This document shows, in pieces, positions 2,297 to 56,012 of a DNA stretch of 64,000 bases; position 1 is the first letter of the stretch; each line of letters opens with the position of its first letter. Origin of the DNA: Escherichia coli (GTDB taxonomy: Bacteria > Pseudomonadota > Gammaproteobacteria > Enterobacterales > Enterobacteriaceae); NCBI RefSeq assembly GCF_002854065.1, contig NZ_CP024147.1. One strand, given 5' to 3'. The notes under the pieces were generated by a model. That model ran no database searches. It was not told where the DNA came from and saw only the letters and a list, made by a program, of their open reading frames with translations. The translations under genes were made by a program, and so were the position numbers.

Positions 2297-2298
2297 AA

Positions 2299-3468
2299 TT
2301 AGCTGTTAGCAACGCAAACTGTTTCAGGTTGTTTTCTGGCTGACATAAACACCAGCAATAATGCCAGTCCCGCGACAATCGCCCCCATCACCGGCACAAA
2401 GCTGTATCCCAGCCCAGCGGAAATTACCGCACCACCAGCGGCTGCTCCCAGCGCATTTCCAAGATTAAAGGCACCAATATTGACTGATGAAGACAGACCT
2501 GGCGCTTCACTGGCGACACGCATCACGCGCATCTGTAACGGCGGTACGACCGCAAAGGTTGCAGCGCCCCACACCACCATGCTAATAGCTGCGCCGAACT
2601 CATTGCGGGCCAGGAACGGGATTGCCAGCATAATCACCATCAGCAGCAACAAAAAGCCTTTCAACGTGCCGTTAACTGAACGATCTGCCAGTTTGCCGCC
2701 GAGATAGTTACCGATAGAGAATCCGACACCAATCAGCACCAGCATTGCCGTGACGAACACCGGTGTTGCGTGGGTAATACTTTGCAGTACCGGAGAGATA
2801 TAGGTGTAGAGAGTAAACATTGCACCAGCTCCCAGTACCGTCGTCAGCAATGCAGACAGCACCTGCGGACGCATTAATACCGCCAGCTCTTTTTTCACTT
2901 CAGGTCGTGCCCCTGCACCACCTTTAGGTAATGAGAAGAACAGACTTACCATTGAAATCACTCCCAGCCCCGCCGTTGCCAGAAATGACATCCGCCAGCC
3001 GATGGTTTCACCCAACCAGGTCGCCGCCGGCACGCCACCGATATTTGCCAGGGTTAACCCCATAAACATAGTGGCAACTGCGCTGGCCTGTTTATGTTTT
3101 GGCACCACGCTTGCAGCCACGACTGAACCCAAACCAAAAAATGCTCCATGATTCAGGCTGGTCAAAATGCGTGAAAGCATCAGGGTCATATAATCCGGCG
3201 CGATGGCGGAAAGTACGTTGCCGAGCGTGAAAATTGCCATCAGGAAAATCAACGCACTGCGGCGGGCACGATGAGAAAGTAGAAGCGTCATCAGCGGCGC
3301 GCCAACCATTACGCCAACTGCATAGGCACTGATTAACATTCCGGCAGCGGGAATCGAGACATCCACACCGCGCGCAATGACGGGCAACAAGCCCATTGGC
3401 GAGAACTCCGTTGTCCCGATACCAAACGCGCCAATCGCCAGCGCCAGCAACGGATAGTTAATTTTCAT
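2299..3468 (-). CDS. ydhP: MFS-family transporter
   Basis: 389-aa polytopic membrane ORF; gene order sodB-ydhP-purR. Confidence 0.85.
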   Translation of the reverse strand: MKINYPLLALAIGAFGIGTTEFSPMGLLPVIARGVDVSIPAAGMLISAYAVGVMVGAPLMTLLLSHRARRSALIFLMAIFTLGNVLSAIAPDYMTLMLSRILTSLNHGAFFGLGSVVAASVVPKHKQASAVATMFMGLTLANIGGVPAATWLGETIGWRMSFLATAGLGVISMVSLFFSLPKGGAGARPEVKKELAVLMRPQVLSALLTTVLGAGAMFTLYTYISPVLQSITHATPVFVTAMLVLIGVGFSIGNYLGGKLADRSVNGTLKGFLLLLMVIMLAIPFLARNEFGAAISMVVWGAATFAVVPPLQMRVMRVASEAPGLSSSVNIGAFNLGNALGAAAGGAVISAGLGYSFVPVMGAIVAGLALLLVFMSARKQPETVCVANS

Positions 3469-3632
3469 GCCTTATCTCCACCTCTTCGCGTCATTACGCG
3501 ATATTCATTAAAGTGGCGAAAGCATGCAGCAATCACAAAAAAATGAAAATAACAAAAAGAGAAAACACTTTTGCCATTTTGCTAACAAACAGGAAGGAGA
3601 TGCGAGGGAGAACGCGCTCCCTCGAGAGGAAA

Positions 3633-3722
3633 TCAGTGCAGCGCGGCAGTCAAACCCACGGCTACGATCAAACCGAGGACGATAATCGTTGTTACCAGTG
3701 AAAATTTAAGGTCGGTGCTCAT
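3633..3722 (-). CDS. ynhF: 29-aa single-helix small membrane protein
   Basis: Hand translation of the minus strand: ATG (complement 3720-3722) ... MSTDLKFSLVTTIIVLGLIVAVGLTAALH, stop at 3633-3635; AAGGAG Shine-Dalgarno 8 nt upstream. Too short for the ORF track. Confidence 0.7.
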   Translation of the reverse strand: MSTDLKFSLVTTIIVLGLIVAVGLTAALH

Positions 3723-3960
3723 CAAGTTTTCTCCTTTTTTATTACCACACAAAAAGTGATATTACGCATTTTTACACACTGTGATGAAAAAATCTCCCGT
3801 CATTTATAATGATAAGTGTTTTTACCACTTCCCCTTTTCGTCAAGATCGGCCAAAATTCCACGCTTACACTATTTGCGTACTGGCCATTGACCCCTTCCT
3901 GACGCTCCGTGTCGTTTTTCCGGCGTACCGCAACACTTTTGTTGTGCGTAAGGTGTGTAA

Positions 3961-3976
3961 AGGCAAACGTTTACCT
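3961..3976. promoter_or_regulatory. PurR operator O1 (PUR box) in the purR leader
   Basis: AGGCAAACGTTTACCT fits the PUR-box consensus ACGCAAACGTTTTCNT; 45 bp upstream of the purR start. Confidence 0.7.
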
Positions 3977-4020
3977 TGCGATTTTGCAGGAGCTGAAGTT
4001 AGGGTCTGGAGTGAAATGGA

Positions 4021-5046
4021 ATGGCAACAATAAAAGATGTAGCGAAACGAGCAAACGTTTCCACTACAACTGTGTCACACGTGATCAACAAAACACGTTT
4101 CGTCGCTGAAGAAACGCGCAACGCCGTGTGGGCAGCGATTAAAGAATTACACTACTCCCCTAGCGCGGTGGCGCGTAGCCTGAAGGTTAACCACACCAAG
4201 TCTATCGGTTTGCTGGCGACCAGCAGCGAAGCGGCCTATTTTGCCGAGATCATTGAAGCAGTTGAAAAAAATTGCTTCCAGAAAGGTTACACCCTGATTC
4301 TGGGCAATGCGTGGAATAATCTTGAGAAACAGCGGGCTTATCTGTCGATGATGGCGCAAAAACGCGTCGATGGTCTGCTGGTAATGTGTTCTGAGTACCC
4401 AGAGCCGTTGCTGGCGATGCTGGAAGAGTATCGCCATATCCCAATGGTGGTGATGGACTGGGGTGAAGCAAAAGCTGACTTCACCGATGCGGTCATTGAT
4501 AACGCGTTCGAAGGCGGCTACATGGCCGGGCGTTATCTGATAGAACGCGGCCATCGCGAAATCGGCGTTATCCCCGGCCCGCTGGAACGTAACACCGGCG
4601 CAGGCCGCCTTGCCGGTTTTATGAAGGCGATGGAAGAAGCGATGATCAAGGTGCCGGAAAGCTGGATTGTGCAGGGTGATTTTGAACCTGAATCCGGTTA
4701 TCGCGCCATGCAGCAAATCCTGTCGCAGCCGCATCGCCCTACTGCCGTCTTCTGTGGTGGCGATATCATGGCAATGGGCGCACTTTGTGCTGCTGATGAA
4801 ATGGGGCTGCGCGTCCCGCAGGATGTTTCGCTGATCGGTTATGATAACGTGCGCAACGCCCGCTATTTTACGCCGGCGCTGACCACGATCCATCAGCCAA
4901 AAGACTCGCTGGGTGAAACAGCGTTCAACATGCTGTTGGATCGTATCGTCAACAAACGTGAAGAACCGCAGTCCATTGAAGTGCATCCGCGCTTGATTGA
5001 ACGCCGCTCCGTGGCTGACGGCCCGTTCCGCGACTATCGTCGTTAA
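4021..5046 (+). CDS. purR: Purine repressor, LacI family
   Basis: 341-aa [39 protein letters not shown]... with LacI-type HTH. Confidence 0.97.
4049..4064. promoter_or_regulatory. PurR operator O2 inside the purR coding region
   Basis: GAGCAAACGTTTCCAC carries the GCAAACGTTT core, 88 bp downstream of O1, matching the known two-operator autoregulation layout. Confidence 0.6.
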
Positions 5047-5975
5047 TCACCCGTTGCGGGAGTCTCTTCCGGCTCCCGCAGCCACTCCTTATTCAGCGTC
5101 TCACTATCGCCGAGATACTCAAGCAACCAGGTTAACGCAGGCGACATATCATTTTGCTGCCATGTCAGACAACATGCCGAATCCGGAAAGGGGTTTTCCA
5201 GTTCTAATGCTACCCACTTCCCCTCATTAAGCCACGGTTTGGCGAAATGTGTTGGCACCATCCCTATGCATAATCCTGCCGAGATACAGGTTGCCGATGA
5301 TTCCCAGTCAGGCACGACAAGTCTTTTTTGGTTATCCAGCAACCAGGTAATACGCTTAGGTAGCGTTCGCGAGGTGTCTTCGCGCACCAACGACGGCCAG
5401 TTGCGCAACGTATCATCGCTGAACGGGCCATCCATCAACGCCAGCGGGTGATGGCTGGCAACAACGCAACTCCAGCTTAGCATCCCCATATCCCGGAAGG
5501 CATAACGACCGCCTACCGGAATCGCGCGTGTTGCGCCAATCGCCAGTTCCACGCGCCCGTCGGAAAGCGCATCCCAGACACCGTTGAACACTTCCTGAAA
5601 GACAAGAAGTTCGACATCATCAAAATGGCGATAAAAATCAACGATCATCTGCCGTGTACGTTCTGGCCTGACAATATTATCCACTGCAATAGCTAACTGA
5701 CCACGCCAGCCGTTCGCTATCTGCTGACATTGCTGGCGGGTGATCTGCATTTTTTTGACAACAGAGCGACCTTCTTTGAGAAACCACGCCCCGGCAGCGG
5801 TCAGTTCCACATCACGGTGACGTCGTTCAAACAGCGGCACCGCCAGCCACTCTTCCAGCTGACGTACGGTATAGCTGACCGCAGAAGGAACGCGATGCAA
5901 CTCCTGGGCTGCGGCACTAAAACTACCATTACGCGCTACCGCATCAACAACTTCGAGTGAATATTCTGACCACAT
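5043..5975 (-). CDS. punR: LysR-family transcriptional regulator
   Basis: 310-aa ORF with N-terminal LysR HTH ([27 protein letters not shown]); divergent from the punC transporter gene. Confidence 0.8.
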
Positions 5976-7589: not shown

Positions 7590-8738
7590 ATGAGTTCATC
7601 GTGTATAGAAGAAGTCAGTGTACCGGATGACAACTGGTACCGTATCGCCAACGAATTACTTAGCCGTGCCGGTATAGCCATTAACGGTTCTGCCCCGGCG
7701 GATATTCGTGTGAAAAACCCCGATTTTTTTAAACGCGTTCTGCAAGAAGGCTCTTTGGGGTTAGGCGAAAGTTATATGGATGGCTGGTGGGAATGTGACC
7801 GACTGGATATGTTTTTTAGCAAAGTCTTACGCGCAGGTCTCGAGAACCAACTCCCCCATCATTTCAAAGACACGCTGCGTATTGCCGGCGCTCGTCTCTT
7901 CAATCTGCAGAGTAAAAAACGTGCCTGGATAGTCGGCAAAGAGCATTATGATTTGGGTAATGACTTGTTCAGCCGCATGCTTGATCCCTTCATGCAATAT
8001 TCCTGCGCTTACTGGAAAGATGCCGATAATCTGGAATCTGCCCAGCAGGCGAAGCTCAAAATGATTTGTGAAAAATTGCAGTTAAAACCAGGGATGCGCG
8101 TACTGGATATTGGCTGCGGCTGGGGCGGACTGGCGCACTACATGGCGTCTAATTATGACGTAAGCGTGGTTGGCGTCACCATTTCTGCCGAACAGCAAAA
8201 AATGGCTCAGGAACGCTGTGAAGGCCTGGATGTCACCATTTTGCTGCAAGATTATCGTGACCTGAACGACCAGTTTGATCGTATTGTTTCTGTGGGGATG
8301 TTCGAGCACGTCGGACCGAAAAATTACGATACCTATTTTGCGGTGGTGGATCGTAATTTGAAACCGGAAGGTATATTCCTGCTCCATACTATCGGTTCGA
8401 AAAAAACCGATCTGAATGTTGATCCCTGGATTAACAAATATATTTTTCCGAACGGTTGCCTGCCCTCTGTACGCCAGATTGCTCAATCCAGCGAACCCCA
8501 CTTTGTGATGGAAGACTGGCATAACTTCGGTGCTGATTACGATACTACGTTGATGGCGTGGTATGAACGATTCCTCGCCGCATGGCCAGAAATTGCGGAT
8601 AACTACAGTGAACGCTTTAAACGAATGTTTACCTATTATCTGAATGCCTGCGCAGGTGCTTTCCGCGCCCGTGATATTCAGCTCTGGCAGGTGGTGTTCT
8701 CACGCGGTGTTGAAAACGGCCTTCGAGTCGCTCGCTAA
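7590..8738 (+). CDS. cfa: Cyclopropane-fatty-acyl-phospholipid synthase
   Basis: 382-aa ORF with SAM-methyltransferase motif VLDIGCGWGGLA. Confidence 0.93.
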   Translation: MSSSCIEEVSVPDDNWYRIANELLSRAGIAINGSAPADIRVKNPDFFKRVLQEGSLGLGESYMDGWWECDRLDMFFSKVLRAGLENQLPHHFKDTLRIAGARLFNLQSKKRAWIVGKEHYDLGNDLFSRMLDPFMQYSCAYWKDADNLESAQQAKLKMICEKLQLKPGMRVLDIGCGWGGLAHYMASNYDVSVVGVTISAEQQKMAQERCEGLDVTILLQDYRDLNDQFDRIVSVGMFEHVGPKNYDTYFAVVDRNLKPEGIFLLHTIGSKKTDLNVDPWINKYIFPNGCLPSVRQIAQSSEPHFVMEDWHNFGADYDTTLMAWYERFLAAWPEIADNYSERFKRMFTYYLNACAGAFRARDIQLWQVVFSRGVENGLRVAR

Positions 8739-8748
8739 AGGCTATTCT

Positions 8749-8775
8749 ATCGCCCCCGCTCAGGGGGCGATTTCA
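8749..8775. terminator. Hairpin between convergent cfa and ribC, possible bidirectional terminator
   Basis: Perfect stem ATCGCCCCC / GGGGGCGAT with 5-nt loop; flanking T tracts are short. Confidence 0.45.
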
Positions 8776-8777
8776 GA

Positions 8778-9419
8778 TCAGGCTTCTGTACCTGGTTGAT
8801 TCATGGCATTTTCTCGTGCCGCCAGCACACGTTCTACCGTATCTACCACTGCCTGAGTTTGTGGATCGATTTCAATGTTGACGCGTGCGCCAAGTTTTTT
8901 CTTCCCAAGAGTCGTGCGTTCCAGTGTTTCCGGAATTAAATGGACGCAAAAACGCGTTGGCGTGACTTCGCCGACGGTCAGGCTAATACCGTCGATGCCA
9001 ATAAATCCTTTGTACAGGATATATTTCATCAACTGACTATCCTGGACTTTAAACCAGATCTGGCGATTATTTTCCGAGGTTAATATTTTCGCCACTTCAG
9101 CGGTGGTCATAATATGACCTGACATTAAGTGTCCGCCAATTTCATCACTGAATTTCGCCGCACGCTCAACGTTTACCCAATCCCCCACTTTTAAATCGCC
9201 AAGATTGGTAATGCGTAACGTTTCTTTCATCAGGTCAAAACTGACATGGTTGCCGTTAATTTCCGTCACGGTCAGGCAGCAACCGTTATGCGCCACGGAC
9301 GCACCGGTTTCCAGGCCGTCCAGCATGTGGTCGGGTAACTCCACCACATGCGTACGAAAATTTGGTTTCTCGTCAATCGACACCAGTTTTGCGGTGCCCT
9401 GTACAATCCCCGTAAACAT
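8778..9419 (-). CDS. ribC: Riboflavin synthase alpha subunit
   Basis: 213-aa [32 protein letters not shown]... with the duplicated lumazine-binding fold. Confidence 0.92.
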
Positions 9420-12611: not shown

Positions 12612-12688
12612 GCGTTCATAGCTCAGTTGGTTAGAGCACCACCTTGACATGGTGGGGGTCGTTGGTTCGAGTCCAATTGAACGCACCA
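12612..12688 (+). tRNA. valV: tRNA-Val (anticodon GAC)
   Basis: 77-nt cloverleaf: acceptor GCGTTCA/TGAACGC, D-arm GCTCAGTTGGTTAGAGC, anticodon loop CTTGACATGG, T-arm GGTTCGAGTCC, 3' CCA. Confidence 0.95.
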
Positions 12689-12692
12689 TCCT

Positions 12693-12769
12693 GCGTCCGT
12701 AGCTCAGTTGGTTAGAGCACCACCTTGACATGGTGGGGGTCGGTGGTTCGAGTCCACTCGGACGCACCA
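12693..12769 (+). tRNA. valW: tRNA-Val (anticodon GAC), second copy
   Basis: 77-nt cloverleaf identical in core to valV but with acceptor stem GCGTCCG/CGGACGC; 4-nt spacer between the copies. Confidence 0.95.
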
Positions 12770-12800
12770 GATTTTCTTAATCTGGTCTTCTCCTTTTTCC
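12766..12800 (+). terminator. Intrinsic terminator after valW
   Basis: Stem ACCAGAT / ATCTGGT followed by CTTCTCCTTTTTCCC. Confidence 0.6.
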
Positions 12801-12876
12801 CTCTGCTTCTTCTCTGTATCCAATACGTTAAAAGATTTACACTGTCTTCGTATGCGTTATCAGAAGGAGAATCGCT

Positions 12877-13182
12877 ATGGCAACTTTGTTACAACTTCAT
12901 TTTGCTTTTAATGGCCCATTTGGCGACGCAATGGCTGAGCAGCTTAAACCACTTGCTGAGTCGATTAATCAGGAACCTGGTTTTCTGTGGAAGGTATGGA
13001 CAGAAAGTGAAAAGAACCACGAAGCCGGCGGGATCTACCTTTTCACTGATGAAAAAAGCGCCCTTGCCTATCTGGAAAAACACACTGCCCGACTGAAAAA
13101 TCTCGGCGTTGAGGAAGTTGTCGCCAAAGTTTTCGATGTCAATGAGCCACTGAGTCAAATCAATCAGGCAAAACTCGCCTGA
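12877..13182 (+). CDS. ydhR: Small conserved protein of unknown function
   Basis: 101-aa ORF with RBS GAAGGAG 6 nt before the ATG; position after the tRNA-Val pair. Confidence 0.8.
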
Positions 13183-13307: not shown

Positions 13308-14912
13308 ATGAAAAAAATTGCTATTGTGGGTGCCGGGCCTACGGGGATCTACACCTTATTCTCGCTTCTACAGCAACAAACTCCACTTTCTATTTCTATC
13401 TTCGAGCAGGCTGGCGAGGCCGGTGTCGGGATGCCATACAGTGATGAGGAAAACTCAAAAATGATGCTGGCAAATATTGCCAGTATTGAAATACCACCGA
13501 TTTATTGTACGTATCTCGAATGGCTACAAAAGCAAGAAGCCAGCCATCTCCAGCGTTATGGCGTTAAAAAAGAAACCTTGCACGATCGTCATTTTTTACC
13601 GCGAATTCTGCTGGGCGAATATTTCCGCGATCAATTTTTACGATTAGTAGACCAGGCACGAAAGCAAAAATTTGCAGTGGCTGTTTATGAATCATGCCAG
13701 GTTACCGATCTGCAAATTACAAATGCTGGCGTCATGCTCGCTACAAATCAGGATTTACCCAGCGAGACGTTTGATTTAGCGGTGATTGCCACGGGTCACG
13801 TCTGGCCTGATGAAGAAGAAGCAACCCGAACGAATTTTCCCAGCCCGTGGTCAGGCCTGCTGGAAGCAAAGGTCGATGCGTGTAACGTGGGTATTATGGG
13901 AACATCCTTGAGCGGACTGGATGCGGCAATGGCAGTGGCTATTCAGCATGGTTCGTTCATTGAAGATGATAAACAACACGTCGTTTTTCACCGCGATAAC
14001 GCAAGTGAAAAGCTAAATATCACGTTGATGTCGCGCACGGGTATTTTACCCGAAGCCGATTTCTATTGCCCTATTCCCTACGAGCCCTTACACATCGTCA
14101 CCGATCAGGCATTAAATGCTGAGATTCAAAAAGGCGAATATGGCCTTTTGGATCGGGTATTTAGATTGATAGTAGAGGAAATCAAGTTTGCTGATCCAGA
14201 CTGGAGCCAACGCATAGCCTTAGAGAGCCTGAATGTCGATTCCTTTGCTCAAGCCTGGTTTGCCGAGCGCAAACAACGCGACCCATTTGACTGGGCAGAA
14301 AAAAATCTCCAAGAAGTCGAACACAATAAACGAGAAAAACATACTGTTCCCTGGCGTTATGTCATTCTGCGCCTGCATGAAGCAGTACAGGAAATTGTTC
14401 CACATCTGAATGAACACGACCATAAACGGTTCAGTAAAGGCCTTGCCCGGGTTTTCATAGATAATTATGCCGCAATCCCTTCAGAGTCTATTCGTCGGCT
14501 GCTGGCCTTACGTGAAGCGGGAATCATTCATATTCTCGCTCTCGGTGAAGACTACAAAATGGAAATTAACGAGTCGCGCACCGTCCTGAAAACGGAAGAC
14601 AACAGCTACTCGTTTGACGTTTTTATTGATGCCCGCGGGCAGCGTCCGCTTAAAGTGAAAGATATTCCTTTCCCTGGACTACGCGAACAATTACAGAAAA
14701 CAGGGGATGAAATCCCTGATGTTGGTGAAGATTATACGTTACAGCAACCCGAAGATATTCGTGGGCGCGTAGCGTTCGGCGCGTTGCCCTGGTTAATGCA
14801 CGACCAGCCTTTCGTTCAGGGACTTACGGCATGTGCAGAAATTGGTGAGGCGATGGCTCGGGCGGTCGTAAAACCTGCATCCCGTGCTCGTCGGCGTCTT
14901 TCGTTTGATTAA
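13308..14912 (+). CDS. ydhS: FAD/NAD(P)-binding protein of unknown function
   Basis: 534-aa ORF with N-terminal dinucleotide-binding motif IAIVGAGPTG. Confidence 0.8.
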   Translation: MKKIAIVGAGPTGIYTLFSLLQQQTPLSISIFEQAGEAGVGMPYSDEENSKMMLANIASIEIPPIYCTYLEWLQKQEASHLQRYGVKKETLHDRHFLPRILLGEYFRDQFLRLVDQARKQKFAVAVYESCQVTDLQITNAGVMLATNQDLPSETFDLAVIATGHVWPDEEEATRTNFPSPWSGLLEAKVDACNVGIMGTSLSGLDAAMAVAIQHGSFIEDDKQHVVFHRDNASEKLNITLMSRTGILPEADFYCPIPYEPLHIVTDQALNAEIQKGEYGLLDRVFRLIVEEIKFADPDWSQRIALESLNVDSFAQAWFAERKQRDPFDWAEKNLQEVEHNKREKHTVPWRYVILRLHEAVQEIVPHLNEHDHKRFSKGLARVFIDNYAAIPSESIRRLLALREAGIIHILALGEDYKMEINESRTVLKTEDNSYSFDVFIDARGQRPLKVKDIPFPGLREQLQKTGDEIPDVGEDYTLQQPEDIRGRVAFGALPWLMHDQPFVQGLTACAEIGEAMARAVVKPASRARRRLSFD

Positions 14913-14923
14913 AGGTAAAGCTA

Positions 14924-15736
14924 TCAGCACTCAACAAACTGATGCTGTTCATTAAGACGATAGCGGACTCCGGCTCGAATATTGTTTTCACCTTCAATGG
15001 CGACGGCGAAACGAACTCTTTCGCCGTCATGATATGCCAGTGCGGCGCTTCCTCCTGGCCCGAGAATAATTGAGTCGACCACGCCCGTGCTCACTACCGT
15101 TGAATTTTCACCGCTGGCAATGATGTGTACATTGTCGCCGCTGTTGACAATTTTGGCGTTTGCGCCAAAGCTGGCGATTTGCACCAGGTCACCATTACTG
15201 GCGACATGACATCGTTCACCCAATGTACAAACGCGTACTCGCATTCCGGTATTCGCAATCCGACTGCTATCTCCAGCGCTGCTTATCCGCGAAGAATTGC
15301 CGGTTACAGCAACCCGTGCGCGCTCACCGGAGCTGCCAATGTGACTGTTAAAGCCGACACTTCCAATCCGCACGCTATAACCCATACTGGCAATTTGTAC
15401 AGCATACCCAGCGGTTGCGATTCTGGCGTTATCCTCACAACAGCCGATGCGAGCATGATCGTCGCTGCGGGCAAACTGACTGCAAAATGCTCTCTCTCCG
15501 GGATCTGTGGCCAGTTTTTGCATAGAGGAAACTTCCTGATGCGCGAAGTTTTCATCCGCCAGCCATTTTTTCCACGCATACTCAACAAGACTCTCCGCCC
15601 AGTCCGTATATCCTTCCTCAATCAGTGCATGATGAATATCAGCATAACTACCGCCGCGCGGGAAATGGCGCAGGAACCAGCGATACATCACCGCTCCGAT
15701 ACGCCATTCTCGCAGGTCTGCTCGTGTAATGATCAT
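14924..15736 (-). CDS. ydhT: Nonapeptide-repeat protein, last gene of the ydhYVWXUT operon
   Basis: 270-aa ORF; residues about 102-218 are at least 13 tandem 9-residue units (YAVQIASMG, YSVRIGSVG, FNSHIGSSG, ...). Confidence 0.8.
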   Translation of the reverse strand: MIITRADLREWRIGAVMYRWFLRHFPRGGSYADIHHALIEEGYTDWAESLVEYAWKKWLADENFAHQEVSSMQKLATDPGERAFCSQFARSDDHARIGCCEDNARIATAGYAVQIASMGYSVRIGSVGFNSHIGSSGERARVAVTGNSSRISSAGDSSRIANTGMRVRVCTLGERCHVASNGDLVQIASFGANAKIVNSGDNVHIIASGENSTVVSTGVVDSIILGPGGSAALAYHDGERVRFAVAIEGENNIRAGVRYRLNEQHQFVEC

Positions 15737-55178: not shown

Positions 55179-56012
55179 ATGGATAATGCTGTTGATCGCC
55201 ACGTTTTTTATATTTCTGATGGTACGGCAATAACTGCGGAGGTATTAGGACACGCAGTAATGTCACAATTTCCCGTCACTATCAGCAGCATCACGCTGCC
55301 GTTTGTCGAAAATGAGAGCCGTGCACGGGCAGTGAAGGATCAGATTGACGCAATTTATCACCAGACAGGCGTGCGCCCGCTGGTCTTCTACTCCATCGTG
55401 TTGCCGGAGATTCGCGCCATCATCTTGCAAAGTGAAGGTTTTTGCCAGGATATCGTTCAGGCGCTGGTTGCCCCGCTACAACAAGAGATGAAACTGGATC
55501 CAACGCCGATTGCTCATCGTACCCATGGCCTTAACCCTAATAATCTCAATAAATATGATGCGCGCATTGCGGCGATTGATTACACCCTCGCCCACGATGA
55601 CGGCATTTCGTTGCGCAATCTGGACCAGGCTCAGGTGATCCTGCTCGGTGTTTCTCGCTGTGGTAAAACCCCCACCAGTCTGTATCTGGCAATGCAGTTT
55701 GGTATCCGCGCGGCAAACTACCCCTTTATTGCCGACGATATGGATAATCTGGTGCTACCCGCGTCGCTCAAACCGCTTCAGCATAAATTGTTCGGCCTGA
55801 CTATCGACCCGGAACGTCTGGCGGCGATTCGCGAGGAACGTCGGGAGAACAGTCGCTATGCCTCGCTTCGTCAGTGCAGGATGGAAGTCGCGGAAGTGGA
55901 AGCCTTGTACCGTAAAAATCAGATCCCGTGGATTAACAGTACCAATTATTCGGTAGAAGAGATTGCCACCAAGATCCTCGATATCATGGGCCTTAGTCGC
56001 CGAATGTACTAG
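55179..56012 (+). CDS. ppsR: PEP synthase regulatory protein (bifunctional kinase/pyrophosphorylase)
   Basis: 277-aa ORF with P-loop-like [11 protein letters not shown]; divergent from ppsA. Confidence 0.9.

Follow-up and report, generated by a model that had tools for sequence, protein, structure and literature searches.

When two genes converge with no intergenic space, any signal that forms a 3′ end for one of them must sit within the coding sequence of its partner. purR and punR of Escherichia coli are such a pair, and their junction raises two questions: how do their transcripts end, and why do both reading frames stop at the same few bases? A preliminary description, made from the sequence of a 64-kb stretch of E. 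coli DNA (the window, to which all positions refer unless given as K-12), had held that the overlapping stop codons leave neither gene a terminator of its own and that transcription from each side must run into the opposing gene.

The shared stop of purR and punR

The junction is made up of the following features:

4021–5046, (+) strand: purR coding sequence, 341 aa, LacI-family purine repressor, with its TAA stop at 5044–5046 (ORF list and RefSeq).
5043–5975, (−) strand: punR (formerly ydhB) coding sequence, 310 aa, LysR-family activator of punC (ORF list and RefSeq).
5043–5046, unstranded: TTAA common to both gene ends, comprising the last base of purR codon 341 (CGT) and the purR TAA stop; the minus-strand reading gives the punR TAA stop.

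The sequence at 5040–5049 is tcgTTAAtca, and the punR stop is the reverse complement of 5043–5045 (tta, read as TAA). The two stop codons have 2 nt in common, and the coding sequences overlap by 4 nt. PurR matches the NCBIfam equivalog NF007979 over residues 1–341 of 341 with 711 bits (cut-off 501), and PunR matches NF008294 with 529 bits (cut-off 345) over residues 1–300 only; the Pfam LysR_substrate domain in PunR stops at residue 290. As both equivalog scores exceed their cut-offs, both ORFs are genuine genes. RefSeq places purR and punR at the same coordinates in E. coli O157:H7 TR01, which is 100% identical to the window over 4700–5400 (a 701-nt query). The K-12 MG1655 annotation (purR 1737844–1738869, punR 1738866–1739798; window positions are K-12 positions minus 1733823) has the same 4-nt overlap, and the K-12 junction sequence is identical to that of the window. 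The 4700–5400 query was matched in 5424 of 5426 complete E. coli genomes, and the 61-nt junction is single-copy and present at ≥95% identity in 5423 of the 5426. That the two stops have TTAA in common, as first described, is therefore upheld by the sequence, the ORF list and RefSeq in both O157:H7 and K-12, and a check of re-annotation for other stop positions returned identical stops in TR01 and MG1655. The overlap is a correct annotation and no error.

This arrangement is an ordinary one that belongs to a well-described class. Convergent overlaps have a modal length of 4 bp, and the only tetramers that permit a 4-bp overlap of opposed stops are CTAA, TTAA, CTAG and TTAG (Lillo and Krakauer 2007, PMC2174442). 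purR and punR are true convergent protein-coding genes, as judged by their equivalog matches and by synteny kept in 79 species, and a tetranucleotide common to both stops is present, TTAA in the window and TTAA or CTAA in the 28 species that overlap (see below). Like the overlaps of Lillo and Krakauer, the pair shares a YTAR motif at its stops and would carry any terminator inside the partner's coding sequence; there is no essential difference, and the purR/punR series shows both the overlapping and the non-overlapping state in one gene family. Convergent overlaps are consistent with an origin by stop-codon mutation (PMC2174442), and the purR–punR overlap fits this known route. RefSeq annotation already contains the overlap itself, and published tables already list where purR mRNA ends. 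In the paper on PunR (PMC8376909) the words 'terminator' and 'convergent' are absent, and the lone 'overlap' refers to regulons and not to the gene junction. Within the window, the nine annotated convergent pairs have gaps of 145, −4, 39, 40, 11, 62, 42, 56 and 3 nt, with purR/punR as the sole overlap; hemP/selO (3-nt gap) and ydhS/ydhT (11-nt gap) are likewise too tight for an intergenic terminator.

A conserved hairpin inside the last codons of punR

Immediately downstream of purR lies an inverted repeat:

5053–5082, unstranded: hairpin with arms at 5053–5064 and 5071–5082 and a 6-nt loop at 5065–5070.

The hairpin begins 7 nt past the purR stop and is wholly contained in punR codons 298–308. 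At its core, an inverted-repeat search found a perfect 8-bp DNA repeat (5055–5062 / 5073–5080). As purR-sense RNA in E. coli, it folds with 12 pairs, two of them G-U, at −23.2 kcal/mol (z −5.8), and 0 of 200 shuffled sequences were as stable. Across the 64 kb the arm pattern has a single match, with 0.00 matches expected.

To place the hairpin in its family we scanned species-representative genomes with PunR, which gave 80 loci; 78 of the fetched loci were usable and, with the window, make up 79 cases. In each of these 79 Enterobacteriaceae cases purR lies next to punR and the two genes converge, and a hairpin lies directly 3′ of purR in every one of the 79 species sampled, although only the inner 9–10 pairs make up the stem portion conserved across the family. 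The arms differ considerably in sequence, with 25 distinct 3′ arms among the species, and they are matched to one another: the duplex energy is −18.8 kcal/mol for a species' own arms versus −11.4 kcal/mol when the 3′ arm is combined with a left region taken from a species whose 3′ arm differs at ≥3 of 12 positions. In a covariance-model alignment, 7 of the 12 pairs show changes on both sides. Compensated cells number 57–59, as against 16–17 in shuffles (0 of 500 shuffles reach the observed count), and the covariation score is 0.205 versus 0.117, a significance that these shuffle tests overstate since the sampled species are related. The fraction of cells that pair is 84–86% as observed and only 27–50% in slid controls, counted on a structural alignment that was itself fitted to the covariance model. 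MAFFT alignment followed by RNAalifold gave almost no structure at the junction, because variable loop and spacer lengths misaligned the 5′ arm. Outside the Enterobacteriaceae, in Erwinia, Pantoea and Providencia, the hairpin is weak or absent.

A perfect 8-bp DNA inverted repeat could also be read as an element that acts in DNA, as the operator of a protein or as a REP-like repeat, and not as an RNA structure. We consider this very improbable: the element is single-copy per genome and has no Rfam match, and its arms vary freely yet stay complementary, with 25 different 3′ arms, which argues against sequence-specific recognition. A dispersed REP/BIME palindrome in particular is ruled out by the single copy in nearly all E. 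coli genomes and the one match in the window. Rfam 15 yielded no match at the gathering score at the junction; over 4900–5300 at E ≤ 10, the sole match was ar7 (E = 1.8; 13.8 bits, where the gathering score is 60), and we take it to be chance.

Which of the two RNAs the hairpin serves is not betrayed by its strand preference. In E. coli the purR-sense fold is the more stable (−23.2 versus −17.0 kcal/mol for punR-sense), and the means over the 79 species are −21.1 and −20.9 kcal/mol (p = 0.68), such that a strand test drawing on both G-U pairs and energies found no asymmetry across those species. The boundary thus holds a single hairpin that is stable on both strands, as in bidirectional terminators of the SEnd-seq class.

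The purR 3′ end and its possible causes

Two features of the purR transcript lie just beyond the hairpin:

5084–5087, (+) strand: steady-state 3′ ends of purR mRNA (K-12 1738907–1738910), giving a 3′ UTR of 38–41 nt.
5083–5160, (+) strand: C-rich, G-poor purR read-through RNA, a possible Rho loading region by composition only (C/G = 1.71, 94th percentile of the window's 78-nt windows).

Adams et al. 2021 (PMC7815308, Supplementary file 1) place purR 3′ ends by Term-seq at K-12 1738907 in LB (OD 0.4) and 1738908 in M63, and count both ends as 'primary' for this gene and as antisense with respect to ydhB; they are window positions 5084 and 5085, 2–3 nt past the stem. The TRS study of 2023 puts the primary 3′ terminus of purR at 1738909/1738910 (window 5086/5087), predicts the same −23.2 kcal/mol hairpin, and reports an R-bar of 0.85–0.95, where R is 1 minus local read-through (PMC10687069, Supplementary Data 2–4). 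The resulting 3′ UTR is antisense to punR codons 297–310 and the punR stop. In total RNA-seq (PMC7373196, Table S1c), purR sense RNA stands at 31–57 RPM and antisense RNA over punR at 1.0–3.8 RPM. Plus-strand RNA over punR thus amounts to 3–7% of the purR level, which is about what the 38–41-nt 3′ UTR would contribute alone. Taken together, the mapped 3′ end and the low plus-strand signal over punR indicate that purR transcription enters punR by ~40 nt and not far.

These data divide the remaining claims of the preliminary description. There is indeed no intergenic room for a terminator of either gene, but purR has a conserved, covarying hairpin inside punR and a mapped 3′ end just past it; purR transcripts do enter the opposing gene, but only by ~40 nt and with an R-bar of 0.85–0.95. 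Antisense RNA, which had been proposed as a check, amounts at gene level in the total RNA-seq to the 3–7% over punR on the plus strand and to 3.9–10.5 RPM over purR on the other, a level compatible both with read-through from punR and with its absence. A stronger form of the original proposal would have no functional terminator for either gene, with convergent polymerases running far into each other's templates and producing long antisense RNAs and transcriptional interference. The nil intergenic space and the missing U-tract on either flank of the hairpin are compatible with this, as is the lack of any minus-strand punR/ydhB 3′ end in the Adams and TRS data sets, which list only the purR end. 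The antisense over purR, next to 15–28 RPM of punR sense RNA, is compatible with it too, but 4–12 RPM of antisense is ordinary for the other genes in the same table. Given the position and sharpness of the purR 3′ end, the low plus-strand RNA over punR and the covariation of the hairpin, we consider this stronger form unlikely.

Several mechanisms could release RNA polymerase here. One candidate is intrinsic (Rho-independent) termination of the canonical kind, with the hairpin as a purR terminator that came to be embedded in punR by chance. The stem-loop is stable, G+C-rich and 7 nt past the stop, the 3′ end is just downstream, and terminators within the partner's coding sequence are documented in E. 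coli, where 19 of 58 convergent overlaps have predicted rho-independent terminators within the partner gene (PMC2174442). However, the tail that follows the stem, CACUCCUUA / CACUCCUUAUUC, has 3 U in its first 9 nt and lacks a U-rich tract (about ≥5 U in 8), and it is constrained as punR coding sequence (ETLNKEW). The 3′ ends also fall 2–5 nt past the stem, as compared with the usual 7–9 nt, and a consensus terminator scan left the site uncalled, since its simple loop and T-run criteria are not matched here. The hairpin thus departs from the textbook form of a terminator, and finding a 3′ end at steady state is no proof that transcription terminates at the site. An intrinsic terminator, if a weak one, is therefore an improbable account and ranks third among the three modes of release that we weighed.

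The mode that we rank first, tentatively and at somewhat less than even odds, is Rho-dependent. Rho would end purR transcription further downstream, in untranslated C-rich RNA antisense to punR, and exonucleases would trim the RNA 3′-to-5′ back to the protective hairpin. Precise ends right after stable stem-loops that lack a U-tract, with rut sites immediately downstream, are the pattern given for Rho-dependent transcripts by Dar and Sorek (PMC6061677). purR resembles the class as portrayed there: it has a U-tract-less stem-loop, a precise 3′ end 2–5 nt after the stem, and C-rich RNA downstream, with a C/G of 1.71 over 5083–5160. It departs from the class in that the Rho regions tabulated with and without bicyclomycin (Adams et al., Supplementary file 2) include none within ~400 nt, at K-12 1738600–1739399, although weak expression lowers the sensitivity of such calls. 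Composition, moreover, predicts Rho loading weakly, and C-richness is in any case common on the antisense strand of a gene.

Bidirectional terminators between convergent genes were reportedly described with SEnd-seq by Ju et al. in 2019. The hairpin could act in this manner, pausing polymerases from both sides so that head-on and trailing collisions release them. For such elements between convergent E. coli genes, pausing and polymerase collision have been described as the mechanism (Wang et al., bioRxiv 10.1101/2022.10.23.513370), and purR–punR is likewise a convergent pair with one boundary stem-loop, equally stable on both strands over the 79 species and unlike an intrinsic terminator in its tail. 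It differs from them in having no intergenic DNA, an element within coding sequence, and a single mapped 3′ end, that of purR and not of punR. Both genes are weakly expressed regulators by RPM, and so collisions between polymerases should be rare. We regard collision or pausing as possible but doubtful, and rank it second. The window also offers a canonical bidirectional intrinsic terminator for comparison, that of cfa/ribE (ribC in K-12), whose hairpin at ~8751–8771 is likewise G+C-rich and common to a convergent pair and for which 3′ ends are published on both strands, for cfa and for ribC. The cfa and ribE genes stand 39 nt apart and their hairpin is flanked by T-rich and A-rich sequence, whereas purR/punR has neither the gap nor such flanks.

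We infer that the hairpin gives rise to the purR 3′ end. As its stability is equal on both strands across species, we conjecture that punR transcripts may use it too.

Where the punR frame ends, and what follows from it

The codons of punR that overlie the hairpin fall into two parts, of which the second is the C-terminal tail of the E. coli protein:

5046–5066, (−) strand: punR codons 304–310 (ETPATGD), drawn from the left arm of the hairpin and a short spacer; codon 304 is 5064–5066.

To determine where punR ends in each species, we walked each ORF from its own start. A 310-aa PunR with the 4-nt overlap, at TTAA or CTAA, was found in 28 of the 79 species (27 fetched loci and the window), namely Escherichia, most Citrobacter, Salmonella arizonae, Trabulsiella, Silvania, Leclercia, Pluralibacter, Pseudocitrobacter and Intestinirhabdus. 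Five species have a purR–punR gap of 1–5 nt. In the other 46, which include Klebsiella, Raoultella, Enterobacter, Kluyvera, Kosakonia, Lelliottia and some Citrobacter, PunR has 303 aa and its stop is codon 304, 14–45 nt from purR. Overlaps longer than 4 nt occurred in none of the 79. Of the 49 distinct sequences without an overlap, 37 have the entire punR stop inside the hairpin loop. On outgroup contigs, obtained through PurR homologues, gene calls give the 4-nt overlap in one from Erwinia amylovora (PunR 310 aa) and in one from Pantoea (301 aa, no hairpin). In Providencia the two genes are 15 nt apart, in Hafnia other genes separate purR from the regulator, and Pectobacterium is without punR.

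The conserved portion of PunR finishes at residue 303 with ...EWLREPE, and the 3′ arm of the hairpin is always punR coding sequence, at about codons 298–302 (W-L-R-E-P). The tail beyond it is of a different character. Among the 28 species with a 310-aa PunR, mean pairwise amino acid identity is 0.31 over residues 304–310 as against 0.86–0.87 over residues 281–303, there are 25 different tails, and the tail falls outside both the NCBIfam and the Pfam models. From these sequence comparisons, the last seven residues of PunR in E. coli are probably a dispensable read-through of a structural element. Selection of the overlap for translational or regulatory coupling was considered and rejected, because the tail is hypervariable and 51 of the 79 species have no overlap.

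The purR stop is well placed to catch a punR frame that lacks its own. The base before the purR stop is a pyrimidine in 79 of 79 species, and the motif is YTAA or YTAG in 78, the exception being TTGA; in one frame of the opposite strand this motif reads as a stop. We simulated loss of the punR stop in the non-overlapping species: at a spacing of 5, 14 or 17 nt, most frames end at the purR YTAA and give the 4-nt overlap, with an earlier stop in the spacer intervening in a few species of such frame-compatible spacing. At other spacings, most gain 15–330 codons, with an overlap of purR as long as 972 nt, yet a long extension of punR into purR is present in none of the 79 species sampled. On this simulation, a frame without the codon-304 stop can end cheaply only in the 4-nt overlap.

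We therefore favour, with a probability of about 0.8, a reading in which the shared TTAA is a by-product of where the punR frame ends and no device of its own, the hairpin defines the purR 3′ end, and the purR stop is a backstop. A stem-loop immediately 3′ of purR, present throughout the Enterobacteriaceae, would set the 3′ end of purR mRNA in E. coli. In most species, punR stops at codon 304. Where that stop is absent and the frame is right (17 nt or equivalent), translation would continue for seven more codons through the 5′ arm and spacer, and the punR frame would then meet the reverse complement of the purR stop, Y followed by TAA, as an automatic backstop, producing the 4-nt overlap.

A further proposal is that the hairpin, together with an overlap of ≥40 nt between the mRNA 3′ ends, couples the production of PurR and PunR reciprocally. 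Strong purR transcription, through paused or colliding polymerases or through sense–antisense pairing across the final punR codons, would leave less full-length punR mRNA, and punR transcription would act likewise on purR. Complementarity between the mRNA 3′ ends would extend over at least 42 nt, provided that punR mRNA reaches its own stop, and in this they resemble excludons and overlapping 3′ UTRs processed by RNase III (review PMC7154746; tool paper PMC12288877). They differ from these in that the purR–punR overlap is very short and there is no evidence of mutual regulation; in rnc mutants, purR and punR show no consistent change in sense or antisense read levels (PMC7373196, Table S1c). 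We think this coupling quite improbable. If true, it would provide an RNA-level reciprocal link between repression of purine synthesis by PurR and activation of purine uptake by PunR–PunC, and would partly explain the conserved purR-punR-punC synteny across Enterobacterales.

The value of these observations is chiefly practical. The overlap annotation is right, and the seven-residue tail of PunR should not be over-interpreted. In-frame deletions of punR/ydhB in the Keio design are said to retain the last few codons only. A Keio-type ydhB deletion would then lose the 3′ arm of the hairpin and could alter purR mRNA stability, making it a possible confounder in studies of purine regulation. As an illustration the comparison across species is tidy, but it is no discovery and raises no new question in termination biology. 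It does offer a small, clean case in which an RNA hairpin and a coding sequence co-evolve, with the stop codon of the partner gene as a backstop.

RNA-family matches, and putative regulatory sites around the purR start

An Rfam search of the window identified a full-length match to an enterobacterial sRNA family immediately upstream of purR, and inspection of the sequence revealed two palindromic sites nearby:

3630-4020, minus strand: STnc550 family, full-length match (396 bits)
3960-3977, plus strand: palindromic site with GCAAACGTTT
4047-4065, plus strand: palindromic site with GCAAACGTTT

As it spans cydH/ynhF (3633-3722) and the entire purR upstream region, its last base lying one base short of the purR start codon, the STnc550 match runs antisense to both the promoter and the 5' UTR of purR. 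The two palindromic sites flank the start codon and resemble PurR operators, and we take them to be putative sites of purR autoregulation. In published Term-seq tables (Adams et al., PMC7815308), plus-strand transcripts have a 3' end in the purR 5' UTR at window 4010 (K-12 1737833) and another within the gene at window 4129 (K-12 1737952). These early 3' ends may reflect premature termination or roadblocking.

The ORF list of the window puts ydhP at 2299-3468 and the record of the O157:H7 strain TR01 puts it at 2298-3467, whereas purR coordinates agree exactly. This indicates that the two sequences differ by 1 nt in length, somewhere in 3468-4020.

A further Rfam match was found at the tRNA-Val genes:

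12731-12893, minus strand: HPnc0260, an antisense RNA family (110 bits)

It overlaps the plus-strand tRNA-Val pair (12612-12769); on the strand facing it are the last part of the second tRNA-Val gene and the beginning of ydhR.

Convergent junctions at purR-punR and elsewhere

Among the species sampled in our Enterobacteriaceae comparison, a 45-nt purR-punR spacer was present only in Enterobacter sp. kpr-6, in which an additional GC-rich palindromic insert, gcgctgcctgggcctgcggttttacgctgcaggcctgc, separates the usual hairpin from the purR stop. This insert is possibly a small inserted repeat. Three other convergent pairs annotated in the window bear comparison:

8738-8778: cfa (plus) and ribE (minus; ribC in K-12), hairpin at about 8751-8771
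14912-14924: ydhS/ydhT, 11 nt apart
55985-55989: hemP/selO, 3 nt apart

Because the gaps of hemP/selO and ydhS/ydhT are just 3 and 11 nt, their terminators, like that of purR, must sit within the coding sequence of the partner gene. The 39-nt gap between cfa and ribE, in contrast, contains a GC-rich hairpin, tcgcccccgctcagggggcga, flanked by T-rich and A-rich sequence, and 3' ends have been published there on both strands, at K-12 1742597-1742600 (+) and 1742565-1742568 (−) (PMC7815308, PMC10687069). This hairpin represents a textbook case of a bidirectional intrinsic terminator and makes a useful contrast to the purR/punR junction.
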